Assembly (NCBI GenBank): GCA_039927815.1
Contig: JBDSUJ010000034.1
Location: 1,170 to 65,169 of the forward strand
Origin: Croceibacterium sp.
Lineage (GTDB): Bacteria > Pseudomonadota > Alphaproteobacteria > Sphingomonadales > Sphingomonadaceae
Length of the DNA stretch: 64,000 bases
Direction of reading: 5' to 3'
Part shown: positions 17,595 to 34,117 of the stretch, one piece after another
How the letters are laid out: each line of letters starts with the position of its first letter
Numbering within the stretch: the first letter of the stretch is position 1
Made by a program: the position numbers and the translations under genes
The notes under the pieces: model-generated
Databases searched by the model: none
Seen by the model: the letters and a program-made list of their open reading frames with translations, nothing else
What the model was told of the DNA's origin: nothing

Positions 17595-18260
17595 TCAATC
17601 CTCTCCGAAGTGCACCGACTCGTCCAGTCGAGAGAGGAAATCCAGCCCGTTGATCACGTGGGCTCGCATCGCACTCTCCGCCGCCTTTGCATCGCCCGCC
17701 ATCACGGCATCGACGATGACGCGGTGGTCCTGAACCGCGGCGCGCAGGCGCTCCCCGCGGTAGAATGTCTCGAACACCAGATGATGGATCGGGGTATTCA
17801 GCCGCTGGACAATGCTCTTGATCACATGGTCGCCCGCCCCGTCCATGATCAGGTTGTGCCATTGCGCGTTCAGACGTGAGAACTGTTCCGGCGCGGGCCC
17901 CGCCACACACGCTTCCATCTGTTCGGCGATGGCGTTCAGTTCGGCCTTTTGCGCTGCGCTTGCTCGCGCGGTAAAATCGGCGGCACAGATGCCCTCCATC
18001 GCCCCCCGAGCATGATAGAGCTGGCGCACTTCCTCCATCGTCGCATTTCGGACCGACGCCCCCCGGAATTCCTCGACATCAACTAGACCTTCCGCGTCCA
18101 GGCGCTGGAGCGCCTCGCGCACCTTGAAACGGCTGCCCCCGGTCTGACGAATTATGTCGATTTCGACCAGACGCTGGCCCGGAACGAGCCTCCTGCGGCG
18201 GATCTGGCCACGGACCCAATCAGCAATCTCGACCGACGATGGCCCCTTTTTTTCTAACAT
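17595..18260 (-). CDS. GntR family transcriptional regulator (FadR/FCD subfamily)
   Basis: N-terminal winged helix (IADWVRGQIRRRRLVPGQRLVEIDIIRQTGGSRFKVREALQRLDAEGLV) plus a helical C-terminal ligand domain. Confidence 0.9.
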   Translation of the reverse strand: MLEKKGPSSVEIADWVRGQIRRRRLVPGQRLVEIDIIRQTGGSRFKVREALQRLDAEGLVDVEEFRGASVRNATMEEVRQLYHARGAMEGICAADFTARASAAQKAELNAIAEQMEACVAGPAPEQFSRLNAQWHNLIMDGAGDHVIKSIVQRLNTPIHHLVFETFYRGERLRAAVQDHRVIVDAVMAGDAKAAESAMRAHVINGLDFLSRLDESVHFGED

Positions 18261-18388
18261 TTGCAGTCTCGTTGACTTGAAAGGGCAGTCTCCTGGTAAT
18301 CAGCGATATTGTCAACAATTTCGTCATCGTGATTTTCGTTGCACTGTCGCCGCGCGTGGCCTTGATGGCAGTTGGAGGAGAGAGGTTC

Positions 18389-20092
18389 ATGGCGACTAGG
18401 CGCGTGAGCGCGATGGCGCTGGCGTTATTGTGCAGCGGTCCGCTCGCCGCGCAGCCGTACCCTGATGTGCTCGTCCAATCGCGTTACGTCAAAGTGCGTG
18501 ACGGCACCCGCCTCGCCATCAGCATTTACCGGCCCGCAACCGGCCCGTCGGCCACGCAGGCGCGCCTGCCCGTGGTGTTCGCCTTCACACCCTATCGCGC
18601 GCGTTATCGCGCCCCTGACGGAAAGATCACCGAGGCCGCCTTAGGCGACAACCTGGGTATGCGCTCGCTGTTGCGCGCCGGATATGTCGTGGCCGTTGCC
18701 GATGTCCGCGGCAAGGGGGCCTCGTTCGGGCATCGCCGGGGTTTCCAGGACCGGACCGAGGCGCAGGACGGCTACGATCTCGTCGAATGGCTGGCGCACC
18801 AGCCCTTTGCCGATGGCAAGGTGGGGATGGTCGGTTGCTCGTACTTGGGAGGGTCCGCCTTCCAGGTTGCGACAACTGCACCCCCGTCGTTGAAGGCCGC
18901 GTTCATCGGCGCGAGCGACCTCGACAAATACGCCTTTGTCCGAAACGGCGGGATCACCGCACAATTCAACACGCGGCCCGATGAAGAGCCGGCCGTCGAC
19001 CTCGCCACCGTTCCGATGGACGAGGACAAGGATGGCGCGATGCTGCGCGCTGCCGTCGCAGAGCACGCGGCGAACACGCCGATGGGTCCACTGTGGTACG
19101 GGATGCCCTACCGGGACAGCCAGTCCGCCTTTACCAAGACCGCGTTCTGGGAAGAAGTCGGGCCTTACACATATCTCGACAAGGTAAAGCGGGCGGGGAT
19201 TGCCACTTACTTCTGGGGCAACTGGCAGGACGAGCCCACCAGCCAGATCATCCTCTCGGCCGCCAACCTGGGAAGTCGTATGCTCGCCGGGCCGGGCGGC
19301 CATTGCGTGCCACCTCCGGGTTTTGACTTGCCGGGAGAGATCGTCGGCTTTTTCGATCATTATCTGAAGGGCCTGAACCACGACTATGGTCGCCTGCCGC
19401 GTGCGACTTACTGGGTCGAGGGGCTGGGCGGAACCGGCCGCTTCGTGATCAGCAACGAACTGCCGGGCGTCGAGTCCCGCCCGGTTCCATGGTATCTCGC
19501 CGCCGCCACGGGTGCGCCCGGGTTGGACAGTTCGACAGCGCCGCTGGAGACTACCGCTTCCTTCAAGGTCGATTACGATCTTCCGCCGGCGGACTATTTC
19601 GCATTCTGGCCTGGGCCCATGGGTGCAAAAGGGCTGAGCTTCACCAGCGCGCCCGTTTCTCAACCGATCAAGCTCATCGGGTATCCGGTGGCCCAATTGA
19701 CGGTGGCGTCCGACAATCCCCAGGCCGACGTCTTCGTTTACCTCGATCGCATCAAGGTGGACGGCAAGGCGGATGTTGCTGCGTTTGGTCGCCTCAAGCT
19801 ATCGCACCACAAGCTAGCGCAGGCCCCTTACAACACCCTCGGGTTGCCGTGGCACTCTGGGCTTCAGGCGGATGTCGCTCCGCCGGCCCCGGGGGAAGCG
19901 GTGCCGCTGTCGATTGCGCTGACGCCTGTTTCGCTGGTCGTCGCGCCGGGCGAGCGGTTGCGCTTCGTGGTCACGGGCGCCGACCCGCGCCAGCGCAATT
20001 TGAAGGCCATTCGGCTCAATCCCGCCCCGCAGATCACCGTGCGCGTGGGCGGCCCAGCCGGTTCTCGCATCGATCTGCCGTTGGCTCCGTGA
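18389..20092 (+). CDS. Secreted CocE/NonD family hydrolase (S15 X-Pro dipeptidyl-peptidase-like alpha/beta hydrolase)
   Basis: Start at MATRRVSAMALALLCSGPLAAQ (GGAGGAG upstream). Motifs RDGTRLAISIYRP, GYVVAVADVRGKGASFG, and the nucleophile elbow GMVGCSYLGG. Confidence 0.85.
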   Translation: MATRRVSAMALALLCSGPLAAQPYPDVLVQSRYVKVRDGTRLAISIYRPATGPSATQARLPVVFAFTPYRARYRAPDGKITEAALGDNLGMRSLLRAGYVVAVADVRGKGASFGHRRGFQDRTEAQDGYDLVEWLAHQPFADGKVGMVGCSYLGGSAFQVATTAPPSLKAAFIGASDLDKYAFVRNGGITAQFNTRPDEEPAVDLATVPMDEDKDGAMLRAAVAEHAANTPMGPLWYGMPYRDSQSAFTKTAFWEEVGPYTYLDKVKRAGIATYFWGNWQDEPTSQIILSAANLGSRMLAGPGGHCVPPPGFDLPGEIVGFFDHYLKGLNHDYGRLPRATYWVEGLGGTGRFVISNELPGVESRPVPWYLAAATGAPGLDSSTAPLETTASFKVDYDLPPADYFAFWPGPMGAKGLSFTSAPVSQPIKLIGYPVAQLTVASDNPQADVFVYLDRIKVDGKADVAAFGRLKLSHHKLAQAPYNTLGLPWHSGLQADVAPPAPGEAVPLSIALTPVSLVVAPGERLRFVVTGADPRQRNLKAIRLNPAPQITVRVGGPAGSRIDLPLAP

Positions 20093-20143
20093 ACAATAAT
20101 GACACCGGCGCAAGACGCCGACGCGACTTGAGGGAGAATTGCC

Positions 20144-22864
20144 ATGATTATTGACAAGCAGGGGCTCCGCCCCGCGATCTTGATGCTGGGCGTTTCGCTG
20201 GGCACGCTGGCGATGGCCAGTCCCGTTTCCGCGCAAGACCGTCCGGTGCCCAGCGCGACAGTTCCGGCCGACCCTGAGGGCGCCGGTCCAACTCCTGTTA
20301 CCGATACGCCTCCCGAAACGATCGTGGTGACAGGAAGCCGGTTGCGCGGCGTAGCGCCAGTTGGGTCCAGCGTCATCGCGCTGGGCCGCGCGGAGATCGA
20401 AAGCTCAGGCGCGGTGACCATCGACCGGATAATCAAGGAAATCCCGCAGAACTTCGACCTGGGCGTGTCCGAGAACTCGCGCGGCCAGTCGGGCGGGAGC
20501 GGCAATATCACGTACGGCAACTCGGTCAACTTGCGGGGGATCGGCCCTTACGCGACCCTGGTGATCATCGATGGCCACCGCGTGACCAGCAACAGCCGTT
20601 CGATCGACCCCTCGGTGCTGCCCTCGCTCGGTGTTGAACGGGTCGAGGTCGTCGCCGACGGCGCGTCGGCGATTTACGGGTCGGACGCCGTGGCGGGGGT
20701 CGTCAACTTGATCCCGCGTCGCACGCTCGATGGCGGCGAAATGTTTGCCCGCAGTGGCTTTTCGGACGGGGGCGACTTTAGCGAAAAGGCGGTTGGCCTG
20801 GCACTGGGCAAGCGCTTTTCGCGCGGACAAATCATGATCGCGGGCGAGCATGTGGAACGTTCCAACCTCTCGGGCGACGACCGCAATTTCTTCGTCAGCA
20901 ATCAACTCCCGTTCGGCGGCACTGACGGGCGAACCACGCGCTGCAATCCCGGCAACATCCGAGTCGGTTCCACGTTCTACGCCATTCCAGCCGGCGGGGT
21001 CACCCAGGCGAACGCCGGATCTCTGGTGGCAGGCACGCGCAACTTGTGCGAGCTGCTGCGGGGCCAAGACCTGATCCCCGAACAGAGCTACAATACCGTG
21101 AATAGCACGGGCACGTTCGACATTACGGGCAGCATCAGTCTGTTCTACGATGCGTTCTATTCCAAGCGCGATTTCTACCGCCGCGGCAGCTACATCGCGC
21201 TTAATAACGTGAACGTGCCGCAGACGAATGCATTCTTCGTGCGCCCGGCTGGATTTGCCGGCAACAGCTACGGCATCGATTACCTCGCTTTGGAACTTCC
21301 GCCCGGCAACACCGCCGGTTACGCCAAGAGCTGGCAGGTAACCCCCGGGATCCGCGTCAAACTGCCGCACGATTTCCAATTCGAAGCGCTGGTTGGGCGC
21401 GGCAAGACCGATGACTTCTCGGGCCTCTATACCGCGGTTAATAATGGCGCGCTCACTACGGCGTTGGCCAGCAGCGACCCGGCCAAGGCGCTCGACGTCT
21501 ATGGTCTCGGACGGACCAATCCGGCGATCTTGCCGGGGTTGGCTGACAATATCTTCCTAGCGCCGACCAACGGCGACTTGTGGACCTACGCAGCCCGGAT
21601 CAACGGATCCTTGGTGGATCTGCCGGGCGGTTCGGTTAAGCTGGCGGCGGGGTTCGAGCGGCAGGACTTCAACGTGGCGCTGGGGTCCGCGCGCGGTGGA
21701 CCAACCCTGCCGATCACTTACCGCAACTTCGGCCGTACCGTGGATTCTTTCTATGGCGAGTTGTACATCCCGATCTTCGGGCCGGGCAACGCGATACCGG
21801 GGTTCGAGCGGCTGGAACTGAACGCCGCGGTCCGACATGACAAGTACAGCGACGTTGGCTCGACCACCAATCCAAAGTTTGGGATCAACTGGTCGCCAAT
21901 CGACGCGGTCAAGCTGCGCGCCAGTTACGGCACATCGTTCCGTGCGCCCACTATCCCCGAAATCTACGGCAATTCGAACAACCTGTTCGTCCAACCCTAT
22001 TCCAACCCCGCCGGCGGGACCATTATCGGGGTAGCCTTGTCCGGCCAGAACCTCGACCTCACGCCGGAAACCGCAAAGACTTGGTCGGTGGGCGCGGATA
22101 TCACGCCCGTGCCGCGGCTGCGCCTCGGCGCGACCTACTGGAGCGTGAATTACGACAACCAGGTCGTCGCCAATCTGTCGAACCTCGCGATCCTAGGCAG
22201 CGAAGCGTTCTACGCGGGCACCGGCATCATCCTGCGTGGGGCGGAAGCGGCCGCGAAGGTCGCCGCGCTGAACGGTTCCGGCGTCGGCTTCAGTGGCGTG
22301 CCACCCGTGCCGGTGACCCTGTTCGTCGACGGGCGCGGGCGCAACCTGGGCACTTCGGTTACGCGCGGTATCGACGTCGTCCTCGATTGGCGGATCAACT
22401 TGACCCCGCAGGACATGATCTCACTCAATGCAGCGGGAACGTACCTCACCACTTACCGCGTTGCCGCAACCCCGAACGCCCCGCAGATTGACCGCCTGAA
22501 CACCATCTTCAATCCGCTGCGATTCAAAGCGCGGTCCAGCGTTTCGTGGGATCACGCTCCGTTCAATGTTCGCGCCACGTGGACGCACATCAACGGGTAC
22601 ATCAACAACGTGCCCACGGTGCCGCAGCAGGTGGGCAGTTTCAACCCGGTCGATCTTGCGATCACTTTCAAGGTCGGAGACGAGTCGGCGAGCGGCTTTG
22701 TCGCCAAGGGCGCTTCGGTCACGCTCGAAGTTCGCAACGCCTTTGACGAGGCGCCGCCTTATGTGAACATAACCCCCAGCGGAAACGGCAGCGGGGGTTA
22801 CGATGCCTCTGCAGCCGATCCGATCGGGCGCTTGTTTGCCGTGAGCGTCAGGAAATCTTTCTAG
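20144..22864 (+). CDS. TonB-dependent receptor
   Basis: 906 aa. Signal peptide ends SPVSAQD. Plug motifs ETIVVTGSRLRG, VERVEVVADGASAIYGSDAVAGVVNLI. C-terminal ...FAVSVRKSF. Confidence 0.9.
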   Translation: MIIDKQGLRPAILMLGVSLGTLAMASPVSAQDRPVPSATVPADPEGAGPTPVTDTPPETIVVTGSRLRGVAPVGSSVIALGRAEIESSGAVTIDRIIKEIPQNFDLGVSENSRGQSGGSGNITYGNSVNLRGIGPYATLVIIDGHRVTSNSRSIDPSVLPSLGVERVEVVADGASAIYGSDAVAGVVNLIPRRTLDGGEMFARSGFSDGGDFSEKAVGLALGKRFSRGQIMIAGEHVERSNLSGDDRNFFVSNQLPFGGTDGRTTRCNPGNIRVGSTFYAIPAGGVTQANAGSLVAGTRNLCELLRGQDLIPEQSYNTVNSTGTFDITGSISLFYDAFYSKRDFYRRGSYIALNNVNVPQTNAFFVRPAGFAGNSYGIDYLALELPPGNTAGYAKSWQVTPGIRVKLPHDFQFEALVGRGKTDDFSGLYTAVNNGALTTALASSDPAKALDVYGLGRTNPAILPGLADNIFLAPTNGDLWTYAARINGSLVDLPGGSVKLAAGFERQDFNVALGSARGGPTLPITYRNFGRTVDSFYGELYIPIFGPGNAIPGFERLELNAAVRHDKYSDVGSTTNPKFGINWSPIDAVKLRASYGTSFRAPTIPEIYGNSNNLFVQPYSNPAGGTIIGVALSGQNLDLTPETAKTWSVGADITPVPRLRLGATYWSVNYDNQVVANLSNLAILGSEAFYAGTGIILRGAEAAAKVAALNGSGVGFSGVPPVPVTLFVDGRGRNLGTSVTRGIDVVLDWRINLTPQDMISLNAAGTYLTTYRVAATPNAPQIDRLNTIFNPLRFKARSSVSWDHAPFNVRATWTHINGYINNVPTVPQQVGSFNPVDLAITFKVGDESASGFVAKGASVTLEVRNAFDEAPPYVNITPSGNGSGGYDASAADPIGRLFAVSVRKSF

Positions 22865-22895
22865 GAGCGGCGCGAAGCGCCACACGCCCAATACG

Positions 22896-24008
22896 ATGAG
22901 CGATGACTTTGTAACCCTGGTGCTGGCCGGGGACCTCATTCTGGACGAACCGGACCCGGGCTACTGGCTCTCGGGCATCGCCCCTGCTTTGCGCGCGGCC
23001 GACCTCGCGATCGGTCATCTTGAGGTACCGCACACGGACTGCCACGACGAGGTAGGAGGCGACGTCCCATCTCCGGGGGCGCCGCCGGAGAATCTCGCTG
23101 CGCTGGCCCAGGCGGGTTTCGCAATGGTGAGCCTGGCCGGCAATCATATGGCGGATTGCGGACCGCAGGGCATCGCCGACACCATCGCAGGCCTCGGCGC
23201 TGCCGGGATCGCCCATGCGGGTGCAGGTGCTGACCTGGCCGCGTCGCGCCAAGCTGCGTTCGTTACTGTAAAAGGCCTTCGGATCGCCCTGTTGAGCTAC
23301 AACTGCGTCGGGCCCGAGTTCGGCTGGGCTGGGCCAGGCAGCGCTGGGAGTGCTTATCTTCCCCTGGAAGTGGCAGGTGGAGGGCCAGTGACGCCGCGCT
23401 CGACGATCGCGGCGATTGCCCCTCAGGCGTACGACATTCTCGCTGAGGATATCGCTACCGCGCGAGCGCAAGCGGATATCGTGCTGGTAGCGTTGCACAA
23501 GGGGCGCGTGCACACTCCGGCGGCGCTTGAACCCTACGAAAGCCCGTTGGCCCGCGCCGCGATCGACGCCGGGGCGGACGTGGTGATCGGCCACCACGCG
23601 CACATCGCGCGCGGGATCGAATTCCATCGCGGCAAACCGATCTTCCACGGCCTTGGCAACGGTTGTGTCGTCACGCGCGCTTTATCACCGGCCCAGGATC
23701 ACCCCGCGCGGCGCGAGTGGGCGGAGCAGCGCAAGGTCCTGTTCGGTTTCGAACCCGACCCGGAATATACGCTCGCGCCGTTCCATCCTGAGGCGAAGCA
23801 CGCCTTCCTCGGGAGAGTTGAAGTGGCGCGGAATGGGGCAGTGCGCGCCTCGATCGTACCCGTGTGGGTAGAAGCGCCGGGCAGGCCAGTGCTGGCGAGC
23901 GGCCAGCGGGCGGAGCAAGTGCGGCGGTATATCGAGGCTATTACCGTCAGCGCCGGGCTGGATGCGGTCACCATCGGCGACGATGGCCGGGTGGCTCTCG
24001 CCGCATGA
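22896..24008 (+). CDS. CapA family (PGA_cap, metallophosphoesterase-like) protein
   Basis: 370 aa. Motifs LAGDLILD, AIGHLE.P, SLAGNHMADCG, VIGHHAHIARGIE. No signal peptide. No capB/capC homologs nearby. Confidence 0.75.
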   Translation: MSDDFVTLVLAGDLILDEPDPGYWLSGIAPALRAADLAIGHLEVPHTDCHDEVGGDVPSPGAPPENLAALAQAGFAMVSLAGNHMADCGPQGIADTIAGLGAAGIAHAGAGADLAASRQAAFVTVKGLRIALLSYNCVGPEFGWAGPGSAGSAYLPLEVAGGGPVTPRSTIAAIAPQAYDILAEDIATARAQADIVLVALHKGRVHTPAALEPYESPLARAAIDAGADVVIGHHAHIARGIEFHRGKPIFHGLGNGCVVTRALSPAQDHPARREWAEQRKVLFGFEPDPEYTLAPFHPEAKHAFLGRVEVARNGAVRASIVPVWVEAPGRPVLASGQRAEQVRRYIEAITVSAGLDAVTIGDDGRVALAA

Positions 24009-24454
24009 CGGCGCTGCACCGCATCGGTGTATGGATCGGAGGCGCCGCGCTGCTGGCTGCGACGGCAATCGACACCATCGCGGTGATCGGGCGCAACATC
24101 GGCCTGCCGATCATCGGCTCGATCGAACTGGTCCAGACGGCTGTGCTGGTGTCGGGCGTGTTCGGCCTGATCTTTGCCACCTGGGGCGAGGAGCACGCCC
24201 GAGTCCGCATCCTTACTGACCGCCTCCCGCGCGCGGGTGCGCTGGCGGATATCATCGGGCCTTTGTCGATGGCACTGTTCTTTGGCTGCCTGCTGACCGG
24301 CTCGCTGTGGCTGGCCAGCGACCTGTGGAGCGGTCACGAGCGAAGCGAAGTGCTCGGTATTCCGTGGGGCGCCCTGCGGCTCACGGCGAACCTTGGGTTG
24401 GCGGGCTGCGTGTTAGCTTCGCTCGCGGTGCTTTTCCGGCGCACCCAGCGATGA
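24005..24454 (+). CDS. TRAP transporter small permease subunit (DctQ-like)
   Basis: 149 aa, four hydrophobic segments. The ATG overlaps the capA-like stop (ATGA). Immediately precedes the DctM-like gene. Confidence 0.75.
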   Translation: MTALHRIGVWIGGAALLAATAIDTIAVIGRNIGLPIIGSIELVQTAVLVSGVFGLIFATWGEEHARVRILTDRLPRAGALADIIGPLSMALFFGCLLTGSLWLASDLWSGHERSEVLGIPWGALRLTANLGLAGCVLASLAVLFRRTQR

Positions 24455-25758
24455 TTTACGCGACTCCCGCCACCGGTGCACTGGGCCTGCTCGTGCTCTT
24501 CGCGCTCATTTTGAGTGGGGTGCGCATCGGCGCGGCGCTCGGTCTTGTCGGGTTGGGTGGGCTGGCGGTCGTGCTCGGGCCGGAACCGGCGTTGATCAAG
24601 GCGGGCGTGGTCACCATCGACACATTGACGCGATACGAGCTTGGCACGCTGCCGCTGTTCCTGCTGATGGCGCACGTGTTCTTCGCGGTCGATGCCAGCC
24701 GCGACATGTTCGATGTCGCCGCACGGTTCCTGGGCCACCGGCGGGGCGGGCTCGCCTATGCCGCTGTGGCCGGCTGCGCGGGCTTCGGCGCCATAAACGG
24801 CTCGAGCCTCGCGACCGCGGCAACGATCGGTTCTGTCGCGCTCCCGGAAATGCGCCGCCGCGGCTATTCGGACGCCCTGGCGACGGGCACCGTCGCCGCG
24901 GGCGGTACTCTGGGCCAGATGATCCCGCCCTCGGGCGCGCTCATCGTTTATGGCATCATTGCCGAGACGTCGATCGGGCAACTGTTCACGGCCGCGATCA
25001 TTCCGGGAATTTCTCAGGCGCTGTTTTATTTCGTGGTGATCTGGCTGCTCGTGCGGTGGAAACCGGGCGTCGCGCCGGCGTCCGAACGGGCGGGGTGGCG
25101 CGAGCGGTGGGAGTCCTTGCGCCGCGTCTGGGACATGGCGCTGCTCATCGCGGTAGTCATCGGCGGGATCGCCGTGGGTTGGATCAGCCCGTCCGAGGCC
25201 GCTGCCATCGGGGCGGCGGGTTCCCTCCTCATCGCGCTAGTCCGGCGTCGGCTCGGCTGGTCAATGCTGTTCTCGGCCTTCGAGGCGACCCTCAAGACGA
25301 GTGGGATGATTTTCCTCATCATCATCGGCGCGCTGGTGTTCTCGGTCTTCATCGGCGTCACCGGCCTCGCCGAAGCGGCCAGCTCCGGGATCGCGGGGCT
25401 GCACCTGGGCCCGACCGGCACGCTGGTGGTTATCGCCTTGCTGCTGCTGGTTCTCGGCTCGGTTCTCGACGGGCTCGCGCTTATGTTGCTGACCACGCCG
25501 ATCCTGCTGCCGATCGTCGAGTCCACCGGCATGTCGGCGCTGTGGTTCGGTATCTTCATCACCCGGGCGATGGAAATGGGCTTCGTCCATCCGCCGCTCG
25601 GCATGAACCTTTATGTGATCCAGGGGGTGGCAAAAGATGTTCCCATCGGCCGTATCTTCAAAGGCGTCCTGCCGTTCCTGGCCAGCGACTTCGTGCACTT
25701 GTTCTTGCTGATCCTGGTCCCCGGCATGGCGCTATGGCTGCCCTCGGTGCTGAGATGA
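24451..25758 (+). CDS. TRAP transporter large permease subunit (DctM-like)
   Basis: 435 aa polytopic protein. Motifs ...GFGAINGSSLATAATIGSVALPEM and GTLGQMIPPS are typical of DctM. ATGA overlap with the DctQ-like gene. Confidence 0.9.
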   Translation: MIYATPATGALGLLVLFALILSGVRIGAALGLVGLGGLAVVLGPEPALIKAGVVTIDTLTRYELGTLPLFLLMAHVFFAVDASRDMFDVAARFLGHRRGGLAYAAVAGCAGFGAINGSSLATAATIGSVALPEMRRRGYSDALATGTVAAGGTLGQMIPPSGALIVYGIIAETSIGQLFTAAIIPGISQALFYFVVIWLLVRWKPGVAPASERAGWRERWESLRRVWDMALLIAVVIGGIAVGWISPSEAAAIGAAGSLLIALVRRRLGWSMLFSAFEATLKTSGMIFLIIIGALVFSVFIGVTGLAEAASSGIAGLHLGPTGTLVVIALLLLVLGSVLDGLALMLLTTPILLPIVESTGMSALWFGIFITRAMEMGFVHPPLGMNLYVIQGVAKDVPIGRIFKGVLPFLASDFVHLFLLILVPGMALWLPSVLR

Positions 25759-26642
25759 CGGGCCCTATTGCCCACGTCGGGCCCAACCTGCCGATGGACC
25801 TTCTGCGGGCAACCGGCCGTCACGCGGGCGCAATAGCGTTCGATCCCGATCGTTCTACGCCGGTCGCAGACCAGTGGATGGAGACGAAGTTCGCCCCGTG
25901 GGCCAAAGTCATTCTCGAGGGGTGGGCAGCCGGCGAATACGACGAGCTGGCACAAGTTCTGTTCAGCCGGGCGGACGACAGCGCGCAGCGCTTATATTAT
26001 TACGTATGCGAGCTGCAGCGGCGGGGACTCGTTGGTGGACCCGAGCCGCTGATCCTCGATATCGCGAAAGTTCCGCGTGCCAGCAGCATCGATCACACCG
26101 CGCATTGCGTGCGTCAATTGACCGTGCGGTTGGAGGTCGACGAGGACGTGCTGGTCACCGCGATCGAGACTTGCAATGCGGAGCGATCCGTTGCTGCCAG
26201 CGCGGTTGGGAGGCCGGTGTGCCTTCTCGCCGGCACTCCGCCGCCTGACGGACGGCTGCATGCTGCCATTCGTCAGGCCGGCTTCGTCCCGGTCGGGCGG
26301 ACTTTGCTCGAAACCTGGAATCAGCTGGGTTCACCGGTCGACTTGACCACTGGCGACGCCTGCGCCGCGTTGGCCCGCCAGATACACGGCGATCCGCAAG
26401 GGCCGCGGTCGTTTGCTGATCCCGGCGCCATGTTGAGCGGTGCATTATCCGCCACTGGCGCGACGGCTGTCATCCTGTGGCAGACGGAGGAAGACGAAGC
26501 GCAGGCCTGGCATCTGCCGGCTCAGAGAGCAGCCCTGTCCACCGCAGGCGTATCGGCTCTGGTCATGACCCGCCGCGACTGGCTCGGCCGCGATGCTGCG
26601 GCACACGAAATCACCGCGTTCCTCGGGGGAATTAAGGCATGA
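25755..26642 (+). CDS. Divergent 2-hydroxyacyl-CoA dehydratase family (BcrC/BadD/HgdB-like) protein, short form
   Basis: 295 aa. ATGA overlap with dctM. N-terminal IAHVGPNLPMDLLRATG and C-terminal AVILWQTEEDEAQAWHLPAQRAALSTAGVSALVM resemble the family termini (...P.E...A.G / ...G.P.L..). The upstream 233 codons of the track ORF lie inside dctM and were rejected. Confidence 0.5.
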   Translation: MTGPIAHVGPNLPMDLLRATGRHAGAIAFDPDRSTPVADQWMETKFAPWAKVILEGWAAGEYDELAQVLFSRADDSAQRLYYYVCELQRRGLVGGPEPLILDIAKVPRASSIDHTAHCVRQLTVRLEVDEDVLVTAIETCNAERSVAASAVGRPVCLLAGTPPPDGRLHAAIRQAGFVPVGRTLLETWNQLGSPVDLTTGDACAALARQIHGDPQGPRSFADPGAMLSGALSATGATAVILWQTEEDEAQAWHLPAQRAALSTAGVSALVMTRRDWLGRDAAAHEITAFLGGIKA

Positions 26643-28723
26643 GCCTGCTCAAGGGCCATCGCGTCGCCATTGTCGGCGGGATGGCGAACCGGCCATTGGC
26701 GCGGTTCCTCGCTTCTCTTGGCGCGGAGCTGGGCGGCCCCGTCGAAGGGGCATCGTTTGTCATCGACGATCTCGGGCTGGAGGCGACCCGCGCCTTGCCA
26801 ATCGCCGAATCCACGGTGCACGTGTCGGTCACACCATTTGGCTCGGGCGGGCCGCGCAGCCAGTGGCGGGGCAGCGAGCTGGTGGCTTCCGCCACCGGAG
26901 GCGCCCTTCGCGTCACCGGAGAGCCGGGTCGTCCGCCGGTCAAGGAAGCCGGTGATGCCTGCACGTTCCACGCCGACATGGTCGCCGCCGCCGGAGCGAT
27001 GGCGGCGCATTACGCACGTGGCACCCACGGCCGGGGCCAGCATGTCGACGTATCGATCCAGCAGGTCGCCTTCAGCCGCAACACGAACGGCGTGCTTGTC
27101 TGGCAGTTCGACAAGCGGAAGCTCCATCGGGTGGGCGGCAAGCTGGCGTACGGCAAGGCGACCATCCGCGCGATCTGGCGGCTCGCGGACGGGTGGTGCT
27201 TCCATTCGCTGATGACCGGGAGGCTAGGCGCGCCAGCGAACCGTGCGCTGGCGGAGTGGATGGACGAGGAGCCGGCGGAAAATCCGCTGCGCGGCGTCGA
27301 TTGGCTGAGCTACAACCGCTCGACCCTGCCTGCCGAGACCCGCGCACAGTGGGAAGCGGCCATCGCCGCGTTTTTCGCCCGGCGCACCAAGCAAGACATC
27401 GCCGACGAAGGGCTGCGCCGCGGCATCAACGCCTGCGTGGTCAACGAGCCTGCCGATGTGCTCGCTGACGCCCATCTGGCAGCGCGCGGCTTCTTCGACA
27501 CCGAGGACGGCCTGCCGCGGAGGTTTGCGGGGATTGTCGAAGGCGGGCACGCGACGCCGCACGAAAGCCATGGCGGTTCCCGCCCGGGCCCCCTGGCAGG
27601 CGTGCGGGTACTCGACTTTGCTTGGGCGCTGGTGGGCTCGATCACGACCAAGACGCTCGGCGACCTGGGTGCCGACGTCGTCAAGATCGAGAGCCGCACC
27701 CGGCCCGACCTGTCGCGCATGGACGTGCAGGTTTCGGCCTCGCAGCATGGCGATTTTGATGACAAGCCATGGTTCGCGCACCTCAACTCGTCCAAGCGGA
27801 GCGTGACCCTGAATCTCAAGCAGCCGGCTGTCTGGGAGATCCTGCGGCCCCTGATCGAATGGGCCGATGTGGTGGTCGAGAACTTCTCCCCCGGGACGAT
27901 GGCCAAGCTCGGGCTTGGATACGCAGACCTGCAGGCGATCAACCCGCAAATCGTGATGGTCTCGGGCAGCGTCTACGGACAGACCGGCCCCCTGGCGCAG
28001 GAATGGGGCGTGGACGGTACCGGGGGCGCGCTGTCGGGCCGGACCTTCCTGACCGGTTACCCAGGCGGTGATCCGGTGATACCCGGCGCTGTGCCCTACG
28101 GCGATGTAATCGTACCGTTCGTGATGGCGGCTTGCGTCGCTGCCGCGTTGCAAACGCGCCGCGAAAGCGGGCAAAGCTGCCACATCGATGCGTCGATGTA
28201 TGAAATCTGCGTCCAGCAGATGCGGCCCTATCTCGCCGCCGCGATGGCAGGGGAAAGCCCTCAGCGTGCCGGGAATGCCGATCCGGGCGTGTTCTTCCAG
28301 GACGTGTTCCCGGCTGCGGGCGAGGATCGCTGGGTCGCGATCAGTGTTGCGGATGAGCCCGAGTTGGAACGGCTGAAAACCGTGACGGGCAGCGACATCG
28401 CGGGCTGGACCGCGACCCGTGACGACCACGCAATCGCGGATCAGTTGCAGGCCCTCGGGTTCGCCGCGGGGGTCGTGCAGGATTGCGAAGACATGATCGA
28501 GCGCGATCCGCAACTGACCGAGCGCGGGTCGCTGGTCGAACTCGACCATCCCGTGCTGGGTCCGTTCGGGCATATCGCCACCCCGATCCGCTTTTCGCGC
28601 GACGTCCCACAGCCGTACCGTGCTCCGCGCATGGGTGAGCACGGGCGCGAAGTTGCCGCGGAACTGTGCAACCTTGACGACGCGCGGATCGATGAACTGC
28701 AGCAATTGGGAGTGTTCGAGTGA
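26639..28723 (+). CDS. Tandem-domain family III (CaiB/BaiF) CoA-transferase
   Basis: 694 aa. Residues ~320-694 form a canonical module (LAGVRVLDFAWALVGSITTKTLGDLGADVVKIES...). Residues 1-~310 form a second, more degenerate module (LKGHRVAIVGGMANRPLARFLASLGAEL...SATGGALRVTGEPGRPPV). ATGA overlap upstream and GTGA overlap downstream. Confidence 0.85.
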   Translation: MSLLKGHRVAIVGGMANRPLARFLASLGAELGGPVEGASFVIDDLGLEATRALPIAESTVHVSVTPFGSGGPRSQWRGSELVASATGGALRVTGEPGRPPVKEAGDACTFHADMVAAAGAMAAHYARGTHGRGQHVDVSIQQVAFSRNTNGVLVWQFDKRKLHRVGGKLAYGKATIRAIWRLADGWCFHSLMTGRLGAPANRALAEWMDEEPAENPLRGVDWLSYNRSTLPAETRAQWEAAIAAFFARRTKQDIADEGLRRGINACVVNEPADVLADAHLAARGFFDTEDGLPRRFAGIVEGGHATPHESHGGSRPGPLAGVRVLDFAWALVGSITTKTLGDLGADVVKIESRTRPDLSRMDVQVSASQHGDFDDKPWFAHLNSSKRSVTLNLKQPAVWEILRPLIEWADVVVENFSPGTMAKLGLGYADLQAINPQIVMVSGSVYGQTGPLAQEWGVDGTGGALSGRTFLTGYPGGDPVIPGAVPYGDVIVPFVMAACVAAALQTRRESGQSCHIDASMYEICVQQMRPYLAAAMAGESPQRAGNADPGVFFQDVFPAAGEDRWVAISVADEPELERLKTVTGSDIAGWTATRDDHAIADQLQALGFAAGVVQDCEDMIERDPQLTERGSLVELDHPVLGPFGHIATPIRFSRDVPQPYRAPRMGEHGREVAAELCNLDDARIDELQQLGVFE

Positions 28724-30009
28724 GCGCACCACTATCGGGCGTGCGAAGCCGCAAGACGCTTACTTGCACCGCCGAAGCGACGGCATTTCAGAAGGCATTC
28801 GGTCAAGACCTCAAGCGGCAGGTGGTCGATGAGGGCGAACCTTTCGTCATTGCCCAGGCCGACACGCCGCACGAAATCTTCCATGCCATGGATATCCCGG
28901 TGATCTCCAACCAGTGGTGGTCCGCGTACATTTCGGCCAAGCAGCTTTCGGGGCGCTACTTCGATGCGATGGCGCAAGCCGGCTACCCGGCCAACAGCTG
29001 CAAGTACTGCTCGCTGGGCCTCGCCTGCACGATCGCCAATGATCCGACGACTGCGCCTTGGGGCGGCCTCCCCACTCCCACCGCGATCGTGGCGCGGCTA
29101 ACGTGCGATTGCATCCAGCACGTCTTCACCCAGTGGGCAGCCGCCATGGGCACCGACTTCTTCGCAATGGAAGCGCCAGCGTGGGAAACCAAGACGCTTG
29201 ATTGGTACACTCGCTCGAGCACCGAATGGGAAAGCCTCTATCAGCCCGACCGCATCAACCTGATGGTTCAGGAGATGGGGGATTTGATCACCTTGCTAGA
29301 ACGCAAGACCGACCGCCGCTTCGACCGCGCCAAACTGGACGCGTTGATGCAGCGTATCGACGTGCAGGAGCGGGCACTGTGGGAAGCCGCCCGCGCGATC
29401 GGCGAAGCGCGTCCATGCCCGGTTTCGATCGCCGAGCAGATGCCCAATACGATGATCCCCCAGTGGCATCGGGGCTCAGACTGGGCGGTTGCGCATTCCG
29501 AGAAGTTCCGCGACGAGGTCCAGCAGCGGATCGACCAGGGCCTCGGCGCGGCGAGCCATGAGCGGTTGCGGCTGATGTGGATCGGGGCCGGGGTGTGGCA
29601 CGACCCGGGGTTCTATCAGGCGCTTGAAGAGAGCCTGGGAGCTGTCTTCGTCTGGTCCATGTACCTACCCTTCGCCGGGCCCCAGTACATTCGTGAGACG
29701 CACGGGCGGACGATGGACGCGCTGGCCAGCCGGATCTGCTCGATCAACGAAGTGCTGCACCTCCCGCCGTGGATGAATGGCTGGATGGTCAGCGAGGCCA
29801 AACGCTGCGAACTCGACGCCGCCGTCATGCTCCTGCCGCCCGACAACCGGTTGTCGCAATCGGGTACCAAGCTGACGGCGCTGGCGCTCGAGGAAGCGGG
29901 CGTGCCGGTGCTCATGATCGATGCCGACATGGTCGATGCCAAGATCTGGGACCACGCCAAGATGGTGGGCCTGGTCGCGCAGTTCCTCGAGCAGCGGGGG
30001 CTGACGTGA
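28720..30009 (+). CDS. 2-hydroxyacyl-CoA dehydratase family (HgdA/BcrB-like) protein
   Basis: 429 aa. PHEIFHAMDIPVIS, NSCKYCSLGLAC, RLMWIGAGVWHDPGFYQALEESLGAVFVWSMY and the C-terminal LEEAGVPVLMIDADMVD follow the architecture of the HGD-D family. Confidence 0.65.
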   Translation: MSAPLSGVRSRKTLTCTAEATAFQKAFGQDLKRQVVDEGEPFVIAQADTPHEIFHAMDIPVISNQWWSAYISAKQLSGRYFDAMAQAGYPANSCKYCSLGLACTIANDPTTAPWGGLPTPTAIVARLTCDCIQHVFTQWAAAMGTDFFAMEAPAWETKTLDWYTRSSTEWESLYQPDRINLMVQEMGDLITLLERKTDRRFDRAKLDALMQRIDVQERALWEAARAIGEARPCPVSIAEQMPNTMIPQWHRGSDWAVAHSEKFRDEVQQRIDQGLGAASHERLRLMWIGAGVWHDPGFYQALEESLGAVFVWSMYLPFAGPQYIRETHGRTMDALASRICSINEVLHLPPWMNGWMVSEAKRCELDAAVMLLPPDNRLSQSGTKLTALALEEAGVPVLMIDADMVDAKIWDHAKMVGLVAQFLEQRGLT

Positions 30010-31046
30010 CGCCCGTGCGATCCCTCGCCCTGCTCGTGGCGGTGCTCCTGGGAGCATGCACGCGGCCGATTCCGCCGGGCGTTACCGAGCTGACCTACGC
30101 CACCCCCTACGCACCGACCCACCCATTCAGCCGCGCCGACCAGCGGTGGATCGACCACATTGAGTTAGCGTCGGGTGGATCGCTCAAGATCGTGCCGATG
30201 TGGTCTGGCGCGCTGTTGTCATCGGATATGTCGCTTGAGGAGCTGCGCCACGGCGTGGCCGATATCGGCTTGGTCACACCGATCTATACCCGCGGCGGGA
30301 CGCATCTCGTACGCATCCAGTCGGGGTTCTACAGCGGCGCGGACTCGATCGCTTCCCAAGTGGCGCTCTACGGTTGCCTCGAGCGTTCTGTGCCGGAACT
30401 GTCACGCGAGTTGCACGGGCTGCATGTGCTGGCGGTGCAGGGCGGGCTTCTGCCCGGGATCGTCACCAGCAAGCGACCGGTGAAGTCGTTGGCCGATCTG
30501 AAAGGCTTGCGGATCCGTGCCCCAACCGAATTGCTTACCGTCCTGCGCGGCCTTGGCGCCGATCCAGTCAACATGCCGATGGGCGACGTCTATTCCGCGC
30601 TGGCGCGGGGCGTCATCGACGGCGTGATTGCCCCGATCGACACGTTTCGCGCGCTCCATTTCGACGAGGTGGGTCATTACTACGCGACGCTCTCCGTGCC
30701 CCGGGGCGCCTACCCTTCGCGCGCGATCGGCGATGCCGCATGGGCCCGGCTGACCCCTGTGCAACAGCAACTATTATTGCAGTCGCGGTCCGTGTGGGAG
30801 GCAGACTTGCGCGATGAGATAGAGAAGGGCGCGGTGACCGGGGCTGCGGCCGCCAAAAAGTCAGGAGTGCGGATCGTCGACTTCGCCCCGGCCGAGCAAG
30901 CGCGGTTCGACGCGCTGTACCTGGCCGACGCGCAAACCAACGCGCGGGCGCTCGCGGCCTTCGGCATCGACGGGCTCGACGCCTTCCGCAAGGCGCGCGC
31001 GAGCGTCCGCACCAGAGACCATATTCAATGCAGAGGGGCCGCGTGA
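30006..31046 (+). CDS. TRAP transporter substrate-binding protein (DctP-like), lipoprotein
   Basis: GTG start overlapping the previous stop (GTGA). Lipobox LLGAC. Core GLRIRAPTELLTVLRGLGADPVNMPMGDVYSALARGVIDGV is typical of DctP. Confidence 0.8.
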   Translation: MTPVRSLALLVAVLLGACTRPIPPGVTELTYATPYAPTHPFSRADQRWIDHIELASGGSLKIVPMWSGALLSSDMSLEELRHGVADIGLVTPIYTRGGTHLVRIQSGFYSGADSIASQVALYGCLERSVPELSRELHGLHVLAVQGGLLPGIVTSKRPVKSLADLKGLRIRAPTELLTVLRGLGADPVNMPMGDVYSALARGVIDGVIAPIDTFRALHFDEVGHYYATLSVPRGAYPSRAIGDAAWARLTPVQQQLLLQSRSVWEADLRDEIEKGAVTGAAAAKKSGVRIVDFAPAEQARFDALYLADAQTNARALAAFGIDGLDAFRKARASVRTRDHIQCRGAA

Positions 31047-32245
31047 ACCAGCCACTGACGGGTATCCGGGTGGCTGATTTCAGCCATGTCATGGCCGGGC
31101 CTTTCGCCTCTCATCTGCTACGGCTGATGGGTGCGGAAGTCATCAAGATCGAACCCAAGAGCGGCGATCAATTCCGCGACTATAGTCCCGATCCCGGCTT
31201 TGCCGGCATGAGCCCGCCCTTTATCGCGGCCAATGTCGGGAAGAAGTCGATCGCGCTCGACCTCAAGGATCCGAACGAAAACGCGATTGCCCGCTCGATC
31301 GTCGAGCGCAGCGACGTGTTGATCGAAAATTTCCGGCCCGGGGTCATGGCTCGCCTCGGTCTTTGCTACGAAAAGGTCCAGCAGACGAACCCCGGGATCA
31401 TTTATTGCTCGGTCTCGGGTTACGGCCAGAACAGCCCTCAGCGCGATTGGCCGGCCATCGACAATATCGTTCAGGCCACCGCGGGCATGATGATGCTGAG
31501 CGGCGGAGAGGGCGAACCGCCGGTGCGCGTCGGCTTCCCGATCGTCGACACGCTGGCCGGGCAGACCGCCGCGCTCGCGATTCTGGGTGCCATCGTCCAG
31601 CGCCAGGCGACGGGGCAGGGGGCGCAGATCGATGTCTCGATGTTCGATGCCACGCTCGCGTTCATGACGTCGGCCATCACGCCCTATCTGGTGACCGGTC
31701 GCGCCATGAAGCGGATGGGCAATACCGGCTATAGCGGGTTGCCAACGGCCTCGCTGTTCACGTGCCGCGACGGGCGCCAGATCTCGCTCGGGATCGTGCA
31801 GGACAACCAGTTCGCCGCCTTCGCCAAGCGTGTCGGCCGGGAGGACTGGCTGACCGACGAACGCTTCAGCACGCCGACGGCGCGTCGAGCAAATTTCGAT
31901 GCCGTTCACGCCGAACTGGCGACGACGTTCGCCCAGCGCGACGCGGCGCAATGGGAAGCCGAATTGAGCGCCAACGGAATCCCGTGCGGCATGATCCGCA
32001 CGGTCAACGAAGCCGTCGATCTGGCGAGCGAGGCAGGCCTCCTGCACGTGGCTATCCCGGGCATTCCTCAGATTGGCACCCTGGCCATTCCCAATGCCGG
32101 CTTCCAGATGAAGCCGGGCTCGCCCGGAACCGCCGAACCGCCGCCCCGGCTCGACGAGCACCGCGAGGAGATTCTCGAATGGCTCGCGCACGATCCCGGA
32201 GATAAAGGTAAGGGCGTCAAAACCGGCGGTGGAGAGGCAAAATGA
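31043..32245 (+). CDS. Family III (CaiB/BaiF) CoA-transferase
   Basis: LTGIRVADFSHVMAGPFASHLLRLMGAEVIKIEP... is the canonical N-terminus. GTG 31043 gives a GTGA overlap with dctP. An in-frame ATG at 31028 is the alternative start. Confidence 0.9.
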   Translation: MNQPLTGIRVADFSHVMAGPFASHLLRLMGAEVIKIEPKSGDQFRDYSPDPGFAGMSPPFIAANVGKKSIALDLKDPNENAIARSIVERSDVLIENFRPGVMARLGLCYEKVQQTNPGIIYCSVSGYGQNSPQRDWPAIDNIVQATAGMMMLSGGEGEPPVRVGFPIVDTLAGQTAALAILGAIVQRQATGQGAQIDVSMFDATLAFMTSAITPYLVTGRAMKRMGNTGYSGLPTASLFTCRDGRQISLGIVQDNQFAAFAKRVGREDWLTDERFSTPTARRANFDAVHAELATTFAQRDAAQWEAELSANGIPCGMIRTVNEAVDLASEAGLLHVAIPGIPQIGTLAIPNAGFQMKPGSPGTAEPPPRLDEHREEILEWLAHDPGDKGKGVKTGGGEAK

Positions 32246-33228
32246 AAAAAAGCATACGTTGCACGGCCATGACGGGCTTGATCGCGCTGGCCGTCCAGGC
32301 CGCGGCACAACAGCCGCCGTCGCCTGCTCCAGGAGGGGCCGACCTGGCCCGGGCGATGGAACAAGCCAACAAGCTGCCCGACACCCCCGGCGATGGCCCT
32401 TACCCCGCGGTGATGGAGCTCGATCCTGGCTTGCCCAATCACGTGGTCTATCGTCCGGCAGACCTCAAGCCTTTCGCAGGGGGCAAGCTGGGCGTTTTCG
32501 CATGGGGCAATGGCGGTTGCGCGGACGACGGCGCCAGCCAGCGCCAGCACCTCGCCGAGATAGCCTCGTACGGCTACCTCGTCGTCGCGCCTGGCGCGTG
32601 GCGCAGCGGACCCAATGCCAAAGTTGCCCGCCAACCAGCCCGCGCCGCTCCGGCTGGCGAGCGCTTGCCGCCACCCGCGACGAGCGCGGCAGACGTCAAG
32701 CAGGGCCTCGATTTCGCGCTGGCCGAGAACGCTCGCCGGGGTAGCAAATACGCCAACCTGATCGACAAGCGCGCGGTTGCGGTAGGCGGGTTCAGCTGCG
32801 GCGGGCTCCAGGCCATCTCACTTGCGGCCGATCCACGGATCGGCACGGTAGTGGTCCAGAACAGCGGCGTATTCAACGATGCCAGCGAGTCGATCGGCGG
32901 CATGAAGGTGTCGAAGGACGTCTTGAAAAACTTCCGTACTCCGGTGCTCTACCTGCTCGGCGGCCCGACCGATATCGCCTACGCCAACGGCAGCGATGAC
33001 GTAAAGCGTATCACCAACGTGCCGCTGGCGTTCGTCAATCTGCCGTTTGGCCACGGCGGAACTTACGCGCGCCCGATGGGCGGCACGGCGGCCGGGATCG
33101 TGGTCGACTGGCTCGAGTGGCGCCTGCGTCACAATGCCAGCGCCGGGCGCAGCTTTATCGGAGCGAACTGTCGGCTATGCGTAAATCCCGAGACCAAGAT
33201 TGAACAAAAGAACTTCCCCGCTCAATAG
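32242..33228 (+). CDS. Secreted alpha/beta hydrolase (dienelactone hydrolase / chlorophyllase-like fold)
   Basis: Signal peptide MKKSIRCTAMTGLIALAVQAAAQ. Nucleophile elbow GGFSCGG. ATGA overlap with the CoA-transferase gene. Confidence 0.65.
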   Translation: MKKSIRCTAMTGLIALAVQAAAQQPPSPAPGGADLARAMEQANKLPDTPGDGPYPAVMELDPGLPNHVVYRPADLKPFAGGKLGVFAWGNGGCADDGASQRQHLAEIASYGYLVVAPGAWRSGPNAKVARQPARAAPAGERLPPPATSAADVKQGLDFALAENARRGSKYANLIDKRAVAVGGFSCGGLQAISLAADPRIGTVVVQNSGVFNDASESIGGMKVSKDVLKNFRTPVLYLLGGPTDIAYANGSDDVKRITNVPLAFVNLPFGHGGTYARPMGGTAAGIVVDWLEWRLRHNASAGRSFIGANCRLCVNPETKIEQKNFPAQ

Positions 33229-34010: not shown

Positions 34011-34117
34011 CGACTCTCCCCGCATGTCCCGTCGGCATCATGCCTTGTCGTCTCCCCAGAGGACAGACCTTGAATGCTCGCGGCATTACTCGGAGCGAAA
34101 ACCAAAGGGAAAAGTCG

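Follow-up and report, generated by a model that had tools for sequence, protein, structure and literature searches.

A conserved chain of overlapping genes in Croceibacterium sp. carries an atypical 2-hydroxyacyl-CoA dehydratase-like subunit pair within a probable uptake operon

We analysed a 64,000-nucleotide stretch of contig JBDSUJ010000034.1 from Croceibacterium sp. (positions 1,170 to 65,169 of the forward strand; hereafter the window). At 22896-33228, direct reading of the sequence gives nine co-directional open reading frames (ORFs) on the + strand, which we labelled g1 to g9. Two of them, g4 and g6, encode an atypical subunit pair of the superfamily of 2-hydroxyacyl-CoA dehydratases and benzoyl-CoA reductases (HGD-D), and the genes around them encode CoA-transferases and a TRAP transporter. 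A module of CoA-transferase and HGD-type proteins is already known; here it occurs in aerobes, separated from the partners it usually has and set inside an uptake operon. A first-pass annotation of this DNA had singled out the four-nucleotide overlaps between all nine genes. The atypical dehydratase-like module is more interesting than that chain, and the unusual features that had been missed are the absence of an activator ATPase gene nearby, a g4 protein without the aligned cluster cysteines, the aerobic hosts and the separation of dctP from dctQM. Ketyl-radical chemistry that is powered by ATP and extremely sensitive to oxygen has its textbook example in this superfamily. The g4/g6 subfamily, with g6 relatives encoded by at least 231 stretches in a collection of species genomes, is a genetically tractable way to ask whether the fold works without an archerase or in air. 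The nine genes are as follows.

22896..24008, + strand: g1, predicted cytoplasmic CapA/PGA_cap calcineurin-fold metalloenzyme, MslH-like (Pfam PGA_cap, PF09587, 1.1e-54)
24005..24454, + strand: g2, TRAP small membrane subunit DctQ (Pfam DctQ, 7e-14)
24451..25758, + strand: g3, TRAP large permease DctM (Pfam DctM, 8.5e-94; NCBIfam TIGR00786, 314 bits against a cut-off of 268)
25755..26642, + strand: g4, shortened beta-type subunit of the HGD-D superfamily (profile and fold)
26639..28723, + strand: g5, fused type III CoA-transferase (Pfam CoA_transf_3 in two stretches, 5.5e-113)
28720..30009, + strand: g6, alpha-type HGD-D subunit (Pfam HGD-D, PF06050, 8.6e-46)
30006..31046, + strand: g7, TRAP solute-binding lipoprotein DctP (Pfam DctP, 7.6e-29; NCBIfam TRAP_S1, 76 bits against 50; LLGAC lipobox)
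31043..32245, + strand: g8, single-domain type III CoA-transferase (Pfam CoA_transf_3, 3.1e-108)
32242..33228, + strand: g9, predicted secreted serine alpha/beta-hydrolase of the PETase, chlorophyllase or PAF-acetylhydrolase type (signal peptide, GGFSCGG nucleophile elbow)

For comparison we retrieved loci of different species, 80 in all and each with flanks of 10 kb, and located orthologs of every gene by tblastn. The core order g1-g8 was kept in about 75 of the 80 species loci, so the synteny search that had been proposed finds the block well beyond this genome. All of the earlier domain calls hold, including that of an HgdB-like protein for g4. By record titles, the hosts of the cluster are Sphingomonadales, Asticcacaulis, Emcibacter and Pseudohongiellaceae; the 231 stretches with g6 relatives come for the most part from Sphingomonadales, Asticcacaulis and some Gammaproteobacteria. 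Sphingomonadales and their relatives have an aerobic lifestyle.

The best listed homologs of g6 are 73-93% identical and come from several orders, the closest fetched locus (93%) being in another Croceibacterium metagenome-assembled genome (MAG). The AlphaFold 2 (AF2) model of g6 (predicted local distance difference test, pLDDT, 83) finds its best matches in alpha chains, those of BzdO, MbdO and HadB, with TM-scores of 0.74-0.80. On its own, g4 had no Pfam match. A profile of 52 g4 orthologs matches HadC, the beta subunit of 2-hydroxyisocaproyl-CoA dehydratase (3o3m_B, 6.4e-7), and 46 of these 52 orthologs match PF06050 individually. The best matches of the g4 AF2 model (pLDDT 93) are again beta chains, namely HadC (TMq 0.79), BzdN and MbdN. 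Since g4 matches beta chains and g6 alpha chains, we conclude that g6 and g4 are an alpha/beta pair of the dehydratase/reductase superfamily, with the two homologous HGD-D subunits that characterise 2-hydroxyacyl-CoA dehydratases. Exact-protein look-ups of the window g6 and of a 295-aa protein identical to g4 returned nothing on record.

The relatives of g6 support this pairing. A HMMER scan of 1.84 billion representatives identified 884 of them, the nearest full-length one being 44% identical. Many of the distant relatives (35-44% identity; for example P0241, P0243, P0250, P0251, P0254, P0255, P0262 and P0266) are 690-845 aa long and carry a g4-like domain N-terminal to the g6-like domain. 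Fusions of this Rosetta stone type suggest that g4 and g6 work together.

The cysteine content of the pair sets it apart from known dehydratases. Six cysteines of g6 (C94, C97, C103, C129, C131 and C233) are invariant, and a seventh, C363, is present in 80 of 81 sequences. An asparagine stands where the canonical third, C-terminal cysteine aligns, that is, the cysteine of the 'nrsC' motif of HadB, 'kSC' of MbdO and 'nrgC' of BzdO. The g4 protein is about 80 residues shorter than HadC and lacks a conserved set of cysteines; the common ones are C85 (70/76), which alone is largely conserved, and C156 (61/76). Cysteines are missing from g4 at two aligned HadC positions, the 'kfC'-motif cysteine and an N-terminal one. 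In g6, C94, C97 and C129 are kept within an altered cysteine set; g4 lacks the aligned cluster ligands. The cysteine-containing relatives of g6 share C94, C97 and C129 together with a cysteine at column 376, the position of the asparagine in g6. In many other relatives, including many of the fused proteins, cysteines are missing from all of these positions, which points to a branch of the HGD-D family that has no cluster.

The closest described arrangements are FldA-FldBC, the phenyllactate dehydratase system of Clostridium sporogenes, and HadA/HadBC, the 2-hydroxyisocaproyl-CoA dehydratase system of Clostridioides difficile. Both place a type III CoA-transferase beside an HGD-D alpha/beta pair, as in this cluster, in which g5 separates g4 from g6 and g8 follows downstream. 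Type III CoA-transferase genes are found upstream of 2-hydroxyacyl-CoA dehydratase genes, and FldA, which is found in a complex with FldBC, passes CoA between the product and the substrate (PMC5897657). Tight co-expression would make sense for proteins that form such a complex and recycle CoA. Every 2-hydroxyacyl-CoA dehydratase is reported to have two clusters of the [4Fe-4S] type and to need an ATP-dependent [4Fe-4S] activator; the activated enzyme is inactivated by oxidation and performs about 10,000 turnovers per activation (PMC5897657). The likeness to these systems is one of layout and fold, g4 best matching HadC and g6 matching HadB in fold. Unlike in these systems, an activator gene (FldI/HadI) is not near this cluster, g4 is shortened and lacks the aligned ligands, and g6 lacks the canonical C-terminal cysteine while possessing four other invariant or near-invariant ones. 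The cluster has a second CoA-transferase gene, g5 being a tandem fusion next to the single-domain g8, and the module is embedded among genes for TRAP, TonB-receptor, CapA-like and secreted-hydrolase proteins. Finally, its hosts are aerobic Alphaproteobacteria instead of fermenting Firmicutes.

We searched for the activator gene in several ways. No activator-type gene (archerase; BcrAD_BadFG ATPase) was found among the window ORFs scanned or among the conserved neighbours within 10 kb on either side in the 80 loci, an absence that applies to the linked neighbourhood. A probe with an activator sequence, which is weak evidence, had no match in 1.6 Mb. Considering that g6/g4 has neither a neighbouring ATP-driven activator nor a beta-subunit cluster, its chemistry probably departs from canonical radical dehydration.

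The alternative is that g4/g6 is a canonical radical (R)-2-hydroxyacyl-CoA dehydratase served by an unlinked archerase-type ATPase. It would then remove the alpha-hydroxyl of, for example, an aryl-lactate or a 2-hydroxy-dicarboxylate, with g1 supplying the (R)-isomer. The HadB/HadC-like folds and the adjacent type III CoA-transferases are as expected for such an enzyme, and g6 is under extreme purifying selection, as its identity to the best listed homologs across orders indicates. It also retains the three cysteines common to its cysteine-containing relatives along with C103, C131, C233 and C363. Moreover, with so many turnovers per activation, the activator need be neither stoichiometric nor linked. 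Conversely, no activator-like gene appeared in the window ORFs, the flanks of the 80 loci or the probe search, and g4 lacks both the kfC and the N-terminal cysteine of HadC although two clusters are reported for every member of this enzyme class. The asparagine at the C-terminal cysteine position of g6 and the aerobic hosts, set against an enzyme that oxidation inactivates, point the same way. We therefore regard a canonical dehydratase as unlikely. Somewhat better placed, and still tentative, is the possibility that g4/g6 represents an activator-independent branch of the HGD/benzoyl-CoA-reductase family in aerobes, acting in a stoichiometric complex with the CoA-transferases. Such a complex might perform in aerobes a CoA-ester chemistry believed to require strict anoxia and an ATP-driven electron of low potential, or an entirely new, non-radical reaction on the same fold, with the CapA-family enzyme serving as a small-molecule epimerase or hydrolase.

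We next consider the overlaps. As the first-pass annotation had read them, all eight junctions carry one: ATGA at 24005, 24451, 25755, 26639 and 32242, and GTGA at 28720, 30006 and 31043. The eight internal stops are all TGA, g9 ends in TAG at 33228, and the window has a G+C content of about 64%. For g5, g6 and g9, the overlapping start is the earliest start codon available past the upstream in-frame stop. When the overlapping starts are used, Pfam profiles are covered from about position 1, and the lengths of g1-g7 (370, 149, 435, 295, 694, 429 and 346 aa) agree with the medians of 71-80 orthologs (370, 150, 435, 294, 695, 428 and 343 aa). The fit is less close for g8 (400 aa, median 387, +13 aa) and g9 (328 aa, median 321.5, +6.5 aa). 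The GTG start of g8 at 31043 is preceded by a GAGGGG Shine-Dalgarno-like motif, whereas the alternative ATG at 31028 is not. Independent gene calls are consistent with these starts. The NCBI gene call for g4 in a Croceibacterium sp. MAG gives the identical 295-aa product with the same start, and the gene calls of Sphingomonas sp. ASY06-1R give six successive 4-nt overlaps in the same block. Across the sampled species, NTGA overlaps were conserved as follows.

g1/g2: readable overlap in 65 of 70 loci
g2/g3: overlap in 67 of 73 loci, with a 1-nt overlap in five more
g3/g4: overlap in 44 of 74 loci, most of the remaining listed loci having a gap of 0-6 nt
g4/g5: overlap in 72 of 74 loci
g5/g6: overlap in 77 of 77 loci
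g6/g7: overlap in 80 of 80 loci
g7/g8: overlap in 36 of the 49 loci where the two genes are adjacent

Among the 71 loci with g1 to g7, 35 had all six overlaps, 29 had five and seven had four. A g9 gene stands between g7 and g8 in 29 loci, and there it overlaps its neighbours on either side (27/28 and 25/25). A few loci deviate from the common architecture. In an Altererythrobacter MAG (L076), g4 abuts g6 and the block lacks g5 and g8; L039 lacks g1, and in L035 g1 has been relocated to the end of the cluster.

Two junctions of the same cluster served as an internal control. Upstream of g1 lie the genes for a CocE/NonD-type (peptidase S15) hydrolase (hereafter S15) and a TonB-dependent receptor (TBDR). 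Overlaps were seen in only 1 of 40 loci between S15 and TBDR and in 1 of 56 between TBDR and g1. To estimate the background, we applied a gene caller based on codon-usage log-odds, which itself missed g4, to the flanks of the loci; 4-nt overlaps could be read there at 49 of 199 co-directional junctions (25%). Elsewhere in the window, the count was 8 of 25 junctions (about 32%), including a run of five at 47283-50933. Under independence, eight consecutive overlaps would occur by chance with p of about 1e-5 to 2e-4. The overlap chain is clearly real, selected and specific to the core block. It is also the strong end of a common genomic habit and neither singular nor extraordinary in itself; four-nucleotide overlaps are common in these genomes, at about 25-32% of co-directional junctions.

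It could be argued that the overlaps have no special role and are a by-product of high GC, TGA stops, compact operons or permissive start choice. The background frequency and the second run of five agree with this view, as does the fact that three of the four bases that can precede a TGA stop yield a start codon. The overlap is also absent from the g3/g4 and g7/g8 junctions of many species. Yet frame and register are exact in 77/77 and 80/80 loci at g5/g6 and g6/g7 despite about 25% protein divergence, and the S15/TBDR and TBDR/g1 junctions almost never overlap. The inserted g9 overlaps both of its neighbours, the first possible start is the overlapping one in g5, g6 and g9, and independent gene calls agree. 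Incidental overlaps are thus quite improbable.

The reality and conservation of the overlaps make it reasonable to infer translational coupling, in which each gene would depend on translation of the one upstream. Tight stoichiometric co-production had been claimed as well; equal stoichiometry does not follow, as an overlap implies coupling only. Shine-Dalgarno-like motifs are present before S15, TBDR, g6, g8 and g9 and absent before g2 and g3, and coupling of these two membrane subunits by re-initiation would fit their missing motifs. With its non-overlapping junctions as an in-cluster control, the chain provides a natural system for studying selection on translational coupling.

The cluster extends beyond the nine genes that had been proposed as its limits. 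Upstream of g1, the following features travel with it.

17595..18260, - strand: divergent GntR/FCD regulator (Pfam GntR and FCD; an ortholog adjoins the cluster in 32 of 80 loci)
18309..18318: TTGTCAACAA, an inverted-repeat GT-N-AC motif of the GntR-operator type, in the gntR/S15 intergenic region
18389..20092, + strand: predicted exported CocE/NonD (peptidase S15) serine hydrolase (Pfam Peptidase_S15 and PepX_C)
20144..22864, + strand: predicted TonB-dependent outer-membrane receptor (Pfam Plug and TonB_dep_Rec_b-barrel)

In nearly all loci S15, TBDR and the GntR gene are found with the core block, in varying positions, and g9 likewise stays nearby. The S15 gene is found near the cluster throughout the loci at a variable position, and TBDR lies directly upstream of g1 in most of them. 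The S15 protein scores 200 bits against the NCBIfam CocE_NonD model (cut-off 66). Its longest ORF runs from 18329; the likely start is the ATG at 18389, which has GGAGGAGAG upstream and is followed by a signal-peptide-like N-terminus. Of the 32 loci that contain gntR, 17 have an identical TTGTCAACAA 10-mer no more than 250 nt from the start of that gene (for example L013:1336, L020:1312 and L007:3914). It is usually the sole copy in a 21-kb locus, and the 64-kb window has two. In the window, S15 and TBDR are separated by 51 nt and TBDR and g1 by 31 nt, all on the same strand. In this genome the cluster probably forms a single unit of 11 genes that spans about 18389 to 33228.

All-versus-all ORF clustering found no further gene family recurring within 10 kb on either side of the 80 loci; beyond the known set, it yielded mostly antisense shadow ORFs and two small families without a Pfam match. 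Rfam detected no RNA element in the window, and a promoter and terminator scan of the window performed no better than on shuffled sequence.

Based on the above, we propose that the cluster is a GntR-controlled catabolic operon that scavenges an ester- or amide-bound carboxylic acid, a reading in which we have moderate confidence. Gene families, folds, synteny, conserved overlaps, the operator motif and the local lack of an activator are observations, from which localisation, pathway order, complex formation and chemistry are deduced. The TonB-dependent receptor would bring a conjugate or oligomer across the outer membrane, and the two putatively exported serine hydrolases, of the CocE/NonD and PETase/chlorophyllase types, would release the acid in the periplasm. 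Export signals are predicted on S15, TBDR, g7 and g9, and none on g1. The TRAP system of DctP, Q and M would then import the free acid, and the type III CoA-transferases g8 and fused g5 may form an acyl-CoA thioester in the cytoplasm. The g6/g4 pair would convert this thioester in an FldA-FldBC-like layout, with CoA recycled between product and substrate, and g1 would most likely epimerise or hydrolyse an alpha-substituted acid. The chain of overlaps would couple the translation of the core genes, including dctQ and dctM with their missing Shine-Dalgarno-like motifs. If true, this would define the substrate of a widespread TonB receptor and TRAP uptake system in freshwater, soil and marine heterotrophs, and provide the first catabolic, small-molecule role for a CapA/PGA_cap protein.

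TRAP, TonB-receptor and secreted-hydrolase genes are ordinary in catabolic operons. The first-pass annotation had described the components as not normally found together, which overstates the case: a type III CoA-transferase beside HGD-family genes is a textbook arrangement (PMC5897657), and as CoA-transferase and HGD pair follow the classic FldA-FldBC/HadA-HadBC layout, that part is no odd mix. That the first-pass annotation did not recognise the block as any described pathway agrees with our searches. We found no published description of the block in the searchable literature and no curated model for it, and none of the 15 proteins scanned reached the curated cut-off of an NCBIfam equivalog model.

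All three components of a TRAP transporter (DctP, DctQ and DctM) are present with family-level scores. The usual TRAP gene order is dctPQM. Here the genes are split, dctP being separated from dctQ-dctM by the three enzyme genes g4-g6, and this order is kept in about 75 species. The nearest Protein Data Bank (PDB) entries to g7 are 4n6d and 4nap/4pgn. The 4NAP protein binds a D-amino acid, while other solved binding proteins near g7 presumably bind aromatic acids.

Both CoA-transferases belong to the type III (CaiB/BaiF, PF02515) family, and the active-site aspartate is found in g8 (D169, 75/75 orthologs) and in the C-terminal half of g5 (D489, 77/77). In g5, the C-terminal half is complete and 28% identical to g8, while the N-terminal CaiB-like half is truncated, being about 60 residues short in its N-terminal region, and has its aspartate (D106) in 70 of 77 orthologs. 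Two CaiB-like domains per polypeptide also occur in DddD, a tandem type III CoA-transferase-like DMSP lyase. By contrast with that enzyme, the N-terminal half of g5 is truncated, and no DddD model was among the NCBIfam matches of g5. The nearest solved relatives of g8 are a formyl-CoA transferase, YfdE and SUGCT, and the nearest CoA-transferases act on oxalate, glutarate, mesaconate and hydroxymethylglutarate. Neither g5 nor g8 reached an equivalog cut-off that would define its substrate. We did not rely on the nearest binding proteins and CoA-transferases for a substrate, as their hints conflict.

The g9 hydrolase has PETase-like and cutinase-like PDB matches at about 1e-10, and its orthologs match Pfam PETase (40/45) and Chlorophyllase (37/45). 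S185, D244/D253 and H271 are invariant, and we class g9 as a serine hydrolase of the esterase type.

For g1, MslH (8gq9, 4.5e-21) was the only solved relative found in the PDB. MslH is a calcineurin-fold, Ca(II)-dependent epimerase of the C-terminal Trp of the lasso peptide MS-271. Six of its eight active residues align with g1: E43, N83, H84, D87, H201 and H236 of g1 are near-invariant and correspond to MslH E44, N87, H88, D91, H259 and H295, while H261 faces a glycine and D11 lies outside the aligned stretch. In MslH the eight residues comprise two His/Asp dyads (H88/D91 and H295/D11) and the Ca ligands E44, N87, H259 and H261. An epimerase cannot be told from a hydrolase by the aligned residues, which are also generic motifs of metallophosphoesterases. 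The g1 protein is also shorter (370 against 440 aa), has no lasso-peptide context and scores 97 bits against the NCBIfam MslH equivalog cut-off of 700. No membrane anchor was predicted for g1, and no CapB/CapC (PgsB/PgsC) ligase gene recurred within 10 kb on either side in the 80 loci. A reading of the cluster as a poly-gamma-glutamate/2-hydroxyglutarate system (CapA plus HgdAB) was dropped, as there were no CapB/C genes and no score came near an equivalog cut-off.

Two other functions can be weighed against the catabolic operon that we propose. The first is a benzoyl-CoA-reductase-like module in which g4/g6 dearomatises an aromatic acyl-CoA made by the CoA-transferases. The class I benzoyl-CoA reductases BzdNO and MbdNO are top fold matches for g6 (alpha) and g4 (beta), and BzdO is also the best sequence match of g6 (1.5e-9). 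The nearest entries of g7, which include the 4NAP protein, have been counted in its favour too. Identity to these reductases is 12-18%, however, and the TM-scores to HadBC are equally high. In the NCBIfam comparison, g6 reaches 43 bits for the BzdO equivalog (cut-off 449) and 38 bits for that of HadB (cut-off 750). Neither a BzdPQ/MbdPQ- or BcrAD-type ATPase module nor a ferredoxin is present in the cluster, and aerobic hosts have oxygenase routes, one of which lies at 41-52 kb of the window. We consider dearomatisation very improbable. The second, a biosynthetic role in making a CapA-type capsule or poly-gamma-glutamate-like polymer, or in natural-product tailoring with an MslH-like epimerase, appeals to the PGA_cap family being named for capsule synthesis and to MslH, the only characterised relative found, being biosynthetic, and it has hardly any probability left given that no CapB/CapC-type ligase, precursor peptide or other conserved biosynthetic gene is nearby, that a TonB receptor and TRAP as importers, together with secreted hydrolases and a GntR regulator of the FCD type, are typical of catabolism, that g1 is absent or moved in some loci (L039, L035), and that its score is far below the MslH equivalog cut-off.

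Several observations also weigh against the proposed catabolic operon. All three solved HGD-type systems that match g4/g6 are complexed with or need an ATP-dependent partner, and none is seen here. Three records (P0325, P0374 and P0365) in which a g5-like CoA-transferase domain runs straight into a g6-like domain would, as natural fusions, be further Rosetta stone evidence for the operon, yet they could be frameshift artefacts at the overlapping junction. Co-transcription of S15 and TBDR with g1-g9 is deduced solely from the short gaps and from the lack of + strand terminator-like sites there, and in some genomes gntR lies between TBDR and g1. The substrate hints are weak and conflicting, with binding proteins that include a D-amino-acid binder on one side and short-dicarboxylate CoA-transferases on the other. 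No downstream enzyme, such as a hydratase or dehydrogenase, is conserved in the cluster.

The rest of the window contains several other gene groups. The second run of overlaps (47283, 48335, 49132, 49632 and 50933) belongs to an unrelated cluster with an FAA hydrolase, an amidohydrolase_2, an acetoacetate-decarboxylase-like protein, an MFS transporter and an FAD monooxygenase. It lies within a larger region of the aromatic ring-cleavage type (41254-52723), which has no conserved link to g1-g9 and contains a glyoxalase/extradiol-dioxygenase-fold protein, two FAD monooxygenases, two FAA-family hydrolases, a metallo-beta-lactamase-fold protein, a regulator of the TetR type and a GST. At 53265-58679, a tannase/feruloyl-esterase gene is followed by minus-strand SnoaL_4 and RPE65 (carotenoid/stilbene oxygenase family) genes. 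A link of the cluster to the RPE65, SnoaL and amidohydrolase genes, considered from the window and from a gamma-proteobacterial MAG (L083) with RPE65 after the cluster, was rejected, as they do not recur in the 80 loci.

Immediately downstream of g9, a LuxR-type regulator gene (33234-34025, - strand) has its stop 5 nt from the g9 stop. It is divergent from a pair of genes at 34040-36252, encoding a beta-keto acid cleavage enzyme (BKACE) and an MFS protein of the aromatic-acid/H+ symporter type, which overlap by 4 nt (GTGA at 35008). Only the closest relative (L002) retains these three genes.

The window has four TonB receptors in all. One of them, at 12388-16323, would be 1311 aa long if read from the TTG at 12388, with about 520 N-terminal residues before the Plug domain that have no Pfam match. 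An antisense ORF at 12649-13539 competes with this reading; just upstream of the receptor gene, 11012-11797 encodes an anti-sigma protein (RskA_C). At 40-10296, type II secretion genes (GspF-like, GspK-like and prepilin peptidase) are interleaved with DUF4331 and a DUF4394-autotransporter gene.

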